Notes under the pieces: model-generated
The model's database searches: none
Told to the model about the DNA's origin: nothing
Seen by the model: the letters and a program-made list of their open reading frames with translations, nothing else
NCBI RefSeq assembly: GCF_003334405.1
Contig: NZ_QOWM01000005.1
Source of the DNA: Escherichia coli
GTDB lineage: Bacteria; Pseudomonadota; Gammaproteobacteria; Enterobacterales; Enterobacteriaceae
DNA: 64,000 nucleotides
Reading direction: 5' to 3' (one strand)
Position numbers and translations under genes: made by a program
Shown: in pieces, positions 9,367 through 9,870 of the stretch
How positions within the stretch are numbered: the first letter of the stretch is position 1
Layout of the letters: each line of letters begins with the position of its first letter

Positions 9367-9870
9367 ATGCCGGATGCGGCCTACGGTTCGGCACAGACTT
9401 GTAGGCATGATAAGACGCGTCCAGCGTCGCATCAGGCATTGTGCGCCAACTGCCGGATGCGGCGTGAACGCCTTATCCGGCCTACGGTTCGGCACAAACC
9501 TGTAGGCCTGATAAGACGCGACAAGCGTCGCATCAGGCATTATGCGCCGACTGCCGGATGCGGCGTGAACGCCTTATCCGGCCTACGGTTCGGCACAGAC
9601 TTGTAGGCATGATAAGACGCGACAAGCGTCGCATCAGGCATTGTGCGCCAACTGCCGGATGCGGCGTAAACGCCTTATCCGGCCTACGGTTCGGCACAGA
9701 CTTGTAGGCATGATAAGACGCGTCAAGCGTCGCATCAGGCATTGTGCGCCAACTGCCGGATGCGGCGTGAACGCCTTATCCGGCCTACGGTTCGGCACAA
9801 ACCTGTAGGCATGATAAGACGCGACAAGCGTCGCATCAGGCATTATGCGCCGACTGCCGGATGCTGCCTA
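9367..9870. repeat. BIME-type tandem array of REP elements, about five units of roughly 100 bp
   Basis: gccggatgcggc recurs at about 9369, 9453, 9552, 9652, 9752 and 9851; each unit holds two inverted REPs. Confidence 0.9.

Follow-up and report, generated by a model that had tools for sequence, protein, structure and literature searches.

A five-unit REP array between convergent yjjW and yjjV of Escherichia coli is very probably the BIME-2 element known in K-12 as REP352

Introduction

The convergent genes yjjW and yjjV of Escherichia coli face each other across a gap that, in the genome analyzed here, is filled with short palindromic repeats. What kind of element occupies this gap, does it belong to a class already described, and what may it do for two transcripts that end against each other? 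We examined these questions in a 64,000-nucleotide stretch of E. coli DNA, hereafter the window, to the first letter of which all positions refer.

Two classes of REP-containing element bear on the answer. BIME-1 combines y with z1 REPs through a long L linker that often contains an IHF site, and is single-copy, whereas BIME-2 combines y with z2 REPs through a short S linker and occurs in multiple tandem copies, the number of which varies between strains (Ton-Hoang et al., PMC3333891). BIME-2 linkers are conserved within a locus and variable between loci (PMC3333891). We conclude with high confidence that the array in the window is an E. coli BIME-2, annotated in K-12 as REP352, which fills the gap between convergent yjjIW and yjjUV; the 3′-UTR role of its hairpins, the gyrase sites and the unequal recombination attributed to it here would follow from membership of this class. 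The element is already known and catalogued, and the window carries an ordinary, five-unit allele of it.

Results

The flanking genes were located from the open reading frame list and from the RefSeq annotation of an identical record, that of E. coli strain 203740, to which window positions 8900–10400 are 100% identical. Upstream of the array lies yjjW (8502–9365, plus strand), encoding a glycine radical enzyme activase and ending in TGA at 9363–9365; the convergent flank is yjjV (9882–10664, minus strand), which encodes a TatD-family metal-dependent hydrolase and ends in TAG at 9884–9882. The array extends from 9369 to 9872 and takes up nearly all of the 516-bp gap between the two stop codons: 3 nt separate the yjjW stop from its start, and the yjjV stop lies 9 nt beyond its end. 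It is therefore extragenic and on the 3′ side of both genes (yjjW stop at 9365, yjjV stop at 9882). The original prediction had placed an array at 9367–9870, downstream of yjjW and between the yjjIW transcript and convergent yjjV. The gene coordinates agree with this placement, and only the limits had to be shifted, by two bases. We also observed that the longest yjjI open reading frame (6851–8530) overlaps the yjjW start by 29 nt (8502–8530), as in RefSeq, which fits one yjjIW transcript ending in the array.

Tandem Repeats Finder reported one array at 9377–9864, with a period of 101, 4.8 copies, 94% matches, no indels and a score of 885, and a repeat search of the window found 202-nt copies at 101-nt spacing with 92–95% identity. 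The Y REP consensus GCCGGATGCGGCGTGAACGCCTTATCCGGCCTAC matched the plus strand at 9452, 9553, 9654 and 9755 with 0–1 mismatch, and the Z2 REP GCCTGATGCGACGCTTGTCGCGTCTTATCAGGCCTAC matched the minus strand at 9401, 9502, 9603, 9704 and 9805 with 0–3 mismatches; the chance expectation, from 100 shuffles, was 0.00 for either pattern. This periodicity and these consensus matches bear out the tandem array of ~100-bp units with inverted REPs that had been proposed, and the REP motifs quoted with that proposal were exact. A CRISPR array was also considered and rejected: whole 101-bp units, linkers included, repeat at 92–95% identity, so that there are no unique spacers.

Unit dissection gave the order y′, then four times a 16-nt tail-to-tail linker, Z2 on the minus strand, a 14-nt head-to-head linker and Y on the plus strand, and finally linker, Z2, linker and y′, with Y (plus) and Z2 (minus) in strict inverted alternation along the array. 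The left terminal y′ remnant, GCCGGATGCGGCCTAC (9369–9384, plus strand), is a 16-nt Y REP without its central 18 nt and without the REP hairpin. Together with the adjoining linker it forms only a weak hairpin (−12.4 kcal/mol, z −2.1), and K-12 and two other Escherichia species share it. The right terminal remnant, GCCGGATGCTGCCTAC (9857–9872, plus strand), is likewise a 16-nt Y REP lacking the central 18 nt, and its structure is not significant (z 0.08). The Z2 REPs, all on the minus strand, lie at 9401–9437 (3 mismatches to the Z2 consensus), 9502–9538 (0 mismatches), 9603–9639 (1 mismatch), 9704–9740 (2 mismatches) and 9805–9841 (1 mismatch). The Y REPs, all on the plus strand, lie at 9452–9485, 9553–9586, 9654–9687 and 9755–9788; the first, second and fourth have 0 mismatches, and the third has 1, in its loop (GTAAAC). 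Nine intact REPs (4 Y and 5 Z2), not ten, are thus present, and the five units of the original prediction hold for Z2 but not for Y, of which four copies are intact and the terminal ones are remnants.

The tail-to-tail linker, GGTTCGGCACAGACTT or a variant ending in CAAACCT, occupies 9385–9400 and recurs at 9486–9501, 9587–9602, 9688–9703 and 9789–9804. The head-to-head linker is of the short ‘S’ type, reads ATTGTGCGCCAACT or the variant ATTATGCGCCGACT, and occupies 9438–9451, 9539–9552, 9640–9653, 9741–9754 and 9842–9855/6. Two linker haplotypes follow one another in the order a-b-a-a-b, where a combines CAGACTT with ATTGTGCGCCAACT and b combines CAAACCT with ATTATGCGCCGACT. The GTAG/CTAC tetranucleotides required by TnpA-REP are present in the REPs of the array.

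Judged by its sequence, the array has every feature that defines BIME-2. Its REPs (four Y and five Z2) follow the 34–37-nt consensus, including GTAG/CTAC, and are imperfect palindromes predicted to form stable stem-loops; the head-to-head linker is short (14 nt here vs ~13 nt in REP325); and the units are in tandem, in a number that varies between strains. REP copies are also dispersed, since a query containing the array matched at least 26 places (median) per E. coli genome. Other REPs occur inside the window at 17496–17640, 51974 and 56625; those at 51974–52007 and 56625–56660 are solitary, one being a perfect Y and one Z1-like with 3 mismatches.

The closest known counterpart is REP352a–h of K-12, listed in EcoCyc between yjjV and yjjW, which shares the locus, the Y and Z2 REPs, the 16-nt and 14-nt linkers and the y′ beside yjjW. 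The K-12 allele has 4 Z2 and 4 Y, that is 8 REPs, and four units against five in the window; its REP content corresponds to REP352a–h, so the element is already catalogued. The MG1655 RefSeq feature table contains no repeat_region lines, and the name REP352 rests on a preprint citing EcoCyc, in which REP352a–h is said to overlap yjjV by 2 nt. The two alleles differ at the yjjV end. In K-12 the last REP of REP352 is a complete Y, and its CTAC tail serves as the yjjV stop, giving a protein of 259 aa with a different C-terminal sequence, whereas in the window the truncated Y is followed by the 18-nt spacer GAAGGGTAAACTACCCAC, which contains the TAG stop, and yjjV encodes 260 aa.

REP325, the model BIME-2 between yjdM and yjdN, is built in the same manner, from Y, a ~17-nt tail-to-tail linker, inverted Z2 and a ~13-nt head-to-head linker, with a ~100-bp period and six units in K-12. 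The linkers of the two arrays are unrelated, however, and REP325 has GGAGGGTGCGGGAATTT in place of the 16-nt tail-to-tail linker. Moreover, REP325, which has been studied directly by experiment, lies between tandem genes of one operon, whereas the yjjW–yjjV array lies between convergent genes. Each Y-S-Z2 doublet is an inverted REP pair and in this respect resembles the REPINs mobilized by RAYT (TnpA-REP); REPINs are dispersed copies, whereas the doublets of this array stand in tandem at one place and have a linker in common.

Two other identities were weighed against BIME-2. The original prediction held that such an array can bind IHF, and its wording implied a BIME-1 (RIP/RIB) element recruiting that protein. 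The array does share Y REPs and an extragenic position with BIME-1, RIP and RIB elements, and of these the presence of Y REPs is the sole point in favor of this identity. These elements, however, use Z1 and a long L linker with an IHF site and are single-copy, whereas the partner REP here is Z2, the head-to-head linker measures 14 nt and the units are tandemly repeated. The IHF consensus WATCAANNNNTTR had no match in the array on either strand, even with one mismatch allowed. As IHF sites belong to the BIME-1 L linker (PMC3333891), the proposed IHF binding was dropped, and we regard a BIME-1 identity as extremely unlikely. The second identity is a coding one, in which the repeated open reading frames, MPDATL... 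and others, would encode real small or repeat proteins. ATG-initiated frames of 47–114 aa do occur on both strands, yet they lie in several frames, and the frame changes from unit to unit because a period of 101 nt is not divisible by 3. The MPDATL... frames begin at ATGCCTGATGCGACGCTT of each minus-strand Z2, so that the ATG belongs to the REP consensus itself; the frames come and go with unit number between strains, and RefSeq annotates none of them in the record that is 100% identical over 8900–10400. We give this identity practically no credence and conclude that the array encodes no protein; the MPDATL... family is an artefact of six-frame translation, as the original prediction had stated.

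The BIME-2 array was then considered as RNA. Individual REPs fold at ~−21 kcal/mol in the RNA of either strand (z −3.9 to −5.0), as exemplified by the second Z2 and the second Y, and a Y-S-Z2 doublet folds into a long hairpin of −50 kcal/mol for 93 nt. When the array was folded in its entirety, it gave one giant long-range hairpin, which was rejected as a thermodynamic artefact that arises because Y and Z2 are partly complementary, and local folds were used instead. No intrinsic terminator (a hairpin followed by a T-run) was found on either strand of 9366–9881. When 31 distinct units, drawn from 13 genomes, were compared column by column, variation was seen in 9 of 48 columns in stems and in 22 of 36 columns in loops and linkers (Fisher p = 9e-5); 95.8% of the stem cells in these 31 units were paired. 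A covariation test of the same 31 distinct units found no compensatory changes in the REP stems, which were invariant, a result that weighs neither way on an RNA structure. This conservation of the stems could be due to recognition of the DNA or to gene conversion instead of a function of the RNA.

To count units across strains, 5,426 complete E. coli genomes were queried with the two flanks joined, and the flank-to-flank span was read in two samples, each of 60 genomes picked at regular intervals along the match ranking of 5,424 genomes. The sampled collection is clinically biased, and the counts below are those of samples, not of a full census. Among the 120 sampled genomes, 0 units were present in 6, 1 in 24, 2 in 17, 3 in 5, 4 in 20, 5 in 42 and 6 in 2; the remaining four comprised two alleles with two units and a full-length terminal Y, one of them from O104:H4, and two alleles carrying IS1397. 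Five units, the number in the window, is thus the commonest class in the sample, and the range of 0 to 6 substantiates the earlier claim that unit number varies between strains. The sequences of 19 E. coli records at the locus showed that the spans correspond to whole units. Strain 510016 has 800-nt flanks identical to those of the window and contains exactly units 1–2, a difference of 303 bp (three units) that falls between identical b-type linkers. The identical flanks and the exact unit difference point to a very recent, in-register gain or loss.

IS1397 is a REP-loop-specific insertion sequence, and insertion into the Y loop is its known target preference. At the yjjW–yjjV gap it was found in the loop of a Y REP in strains L1PEag1 and N39, which are unrelated genomes carrying it in opposite orientations; in L1PEag1 the host allele consists of a single Y REP only. 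Alleles without any Z2 unit include KE55, which has a single Y, and EC17CM2, which has a single y′. Because such Z2-less alleles exist in ~5% of the sampled genomes, the array is dispensable.

Orthologous sites in other species were recovered with a degenerate-codon pattern for the YjjW C-terminus. The locus holds 1 unit in E. albertii, 4 in E. whittamii, 2 in Escherichia sp. E1V33 and 11, an array of ~1.1 kb, in Escherichia sp. MOD1-EC7003, and the linkers specific to this locus recur in all of these orthologous Escherichia arrays. In Salmonella enterica subsp. arizonae and several Citrobacter species, the yjjW stop is immediately followed by REPs of types of their own, and C. portucalensis carries an independent long array of Citrobacter-type REPs in the orthologous gap. 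The presence of REPs at this site in Escherichia, Salmonella and Citrobacter indicates that REPs have occupied the gap for a long time; within Escherichia, a single ancestral doublet was amplified locally to give the array.

The ends of the array record later changes. At the right end, E. albertii and E. coli O104:H4 have a full-length terminal Y, which precedes the spacer GAAGGGCA(A/G)ACTACCCAC, of which GAAAGACAAACTACCCAC is the E. albertii version; this arrangement implies that the truncated right y′ of the window and the spacer-less junction of K-12 are both derived. For the Z2-less alleles, deletion between the terminal repeats is the simplest explanation; excision by RAYT at CC|TAC would yield the same product and would be indistinguishable from such a deletion. 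Since EC17CM2 has a single y′ and no units, we also considered whether the 16-nt y′ copies flanking the array are a target-site duplication left by insertion of a BIME into an empty site. This was rejected as the primary reading, given that E. albertii and O104:H4 keep a full-length right Y and that the sister species all carry arrays.

Discussion

By analogy with REP325, the array most likely works as a bidirectional 3′-UTR barrier for yjjIW and yjjUV. Its REP hairpins would act in both directions as 3′-UTR elements of the two convergent mRNAs, where they may block 3′-to-5′ exonucleases and partly stop read-through, in part in a Rho-dependent manner. REP325 itself has been described as a partial terminator, partly Rho-dependent, and as an mRNA stabilizer, and convergent gene pairs with a REP have been reported to show higher expression; across the genome, the half-lives of REP-bearing mRNAs are not longer (bioRxiv 10.64898/2026.03.23.713779). 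That preprint and its supplements contain no REP352 result, and yjjW appears there only in a differential-expression table. Gyrase binding and cleavage are a property of the BIME-2 class, in which cleavage sites are enriched, mainly in y REPs (PMC6379681). On this analogy, the four intact Y REPs are plausible candidate gyrase sites between the convergent units, and as preferred cleavage sites they would relieve positive supercoils between the two genes. Neither yjjW nor yjjV was found in the supplementary files searched for that gyrase Topo-seq paper (PMC6379681). Copy number would shift by in-register unequal recombination or slippage, possibly aided by the REP-associated transposase TnpA-REP (RAYT).

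Two further explanations concern function rather than class. The array may be a selfish or neutral REPIN cluster without host function, kept by RAYT-mediated or recombinational amplification that is balanced by deletion. The absence of a fixed copy number (values run from 0 to 11), the occurrence of Z2-less alleles, the whole-unit changes between near-identical strains and the cleavage and recombination of BIMEs by TnpA-REP in vitro (PMC3333891) all favor this explanation. However, in all of the Escherichia, Salmonella and Citrobacter genomes recovered, the yjjW stop is immediately followed by a REP, which argues for long persistence of REPs at this site; the Z2-less E. coli alleles still keep a Y REP or a remnant of one; and the stems are far less variable than the loops and linkers. 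We therefore consider a purely neutral array possible but on the unlikely side. It is compatible with, and does not exclude, a BIME-2 acting as a 3′ barrier.

The other explanation takes the array for a group of small RNA genes of the naRNA4 type, the products of which would bind HU and condense the chromosome, as was first proposed for REP325 (PMC4550694). Four Y-S-Z2 doublets on the minus strand (9404–9482, 9505–9583, 9606–9684 and 9707–9785) match the Rfam family naRNA4 (RF02564) with 74–84 bits, against a gathering score of 59.5, and one match on the plus strand, with 61 bits, also exceeds that threshold. The matching minus strand is the sense strand of the yjjUV transcript and has the same orientation as the transcribed strand of REP325. 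Yet an unrelated Y/Z1 REP pair at 17555–17637 likewise exceeds the RF02564 threshold, which shows that the model is a generic detector of head-to-head REP pairs and is not specific to REP325-type arrays. Furthermore, no promoter-like site was found that would drive the array as a unit of its own: a promoter scan of the minus strand gave matches to only 9 of 12 consensus positions, in a number not above that of shuffles. The function of naRNA4 as a processed ~80-nt RNA binding HU is itself disputed (bioRxiv 10.64898/2026.03.23.713779). We judge a small RNA cluster to be very unlikely, and Rfam naRNA4 matches at this locus should not be taken to mark specific sRNA genes. The Y/Z1 pair, which scores 65.4 bits with RF02564, belongs to a small BIME at 17496–17640 (Y, inverted Z1, Y), just upstream of a tRNA at 17777–17860.

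In the window allele, truncation of both gene-proximal Y copies places the first intact hairpin ~39–40 nt from either stop codon. According to a summary in PMC12306157, REPs at most 15 nt from a stop codon have been reported to stall ribosomes and lower translation. The first intact hairpins of the window are outside this 15-nt range; K-12-type alleles have a full Y that overlaps the yjjV stop. The number of units, together with the condition of the gene-proximal Y REPs, might serve as a strain-specific expression dial for yjjIW and yjjUV, a suggestion that we regard as doubtful. If the y′ deletions and the variation from 0 to 6 units were selected, they would represent natural alleles of REP-mediated control of translation and mRNA stability.

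The importance of the array beyond correct annotation is slight: it is best masked as a BIME-2, orthologous to REP352, to keep MPDATL-type open reading frames from being called as genes. For experiment, the locus is a ready allelic series for the effects of REP number and stop-codon proximity on a convergent gene pair, the principle having been published for REP325. It is also a convenient natural VNTR: unit number is 0–6 within E. coli and 11 in a sister species, and IS1397 has inserted there repeatedly.

One further feature was observed inside yjjW. The sequence CTGGCTCTGTTTTTGCA, at 8571–8587 on the plus strand, runs in the sense direction and points at the array; it is identical to the intragenic sigma-54 binding site IS57, mapped in yjjW by ChIP-seq (PMC4591121). 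A hairpin just upstream of this site, at 8556–8577, was also flagged by the terminator scan.
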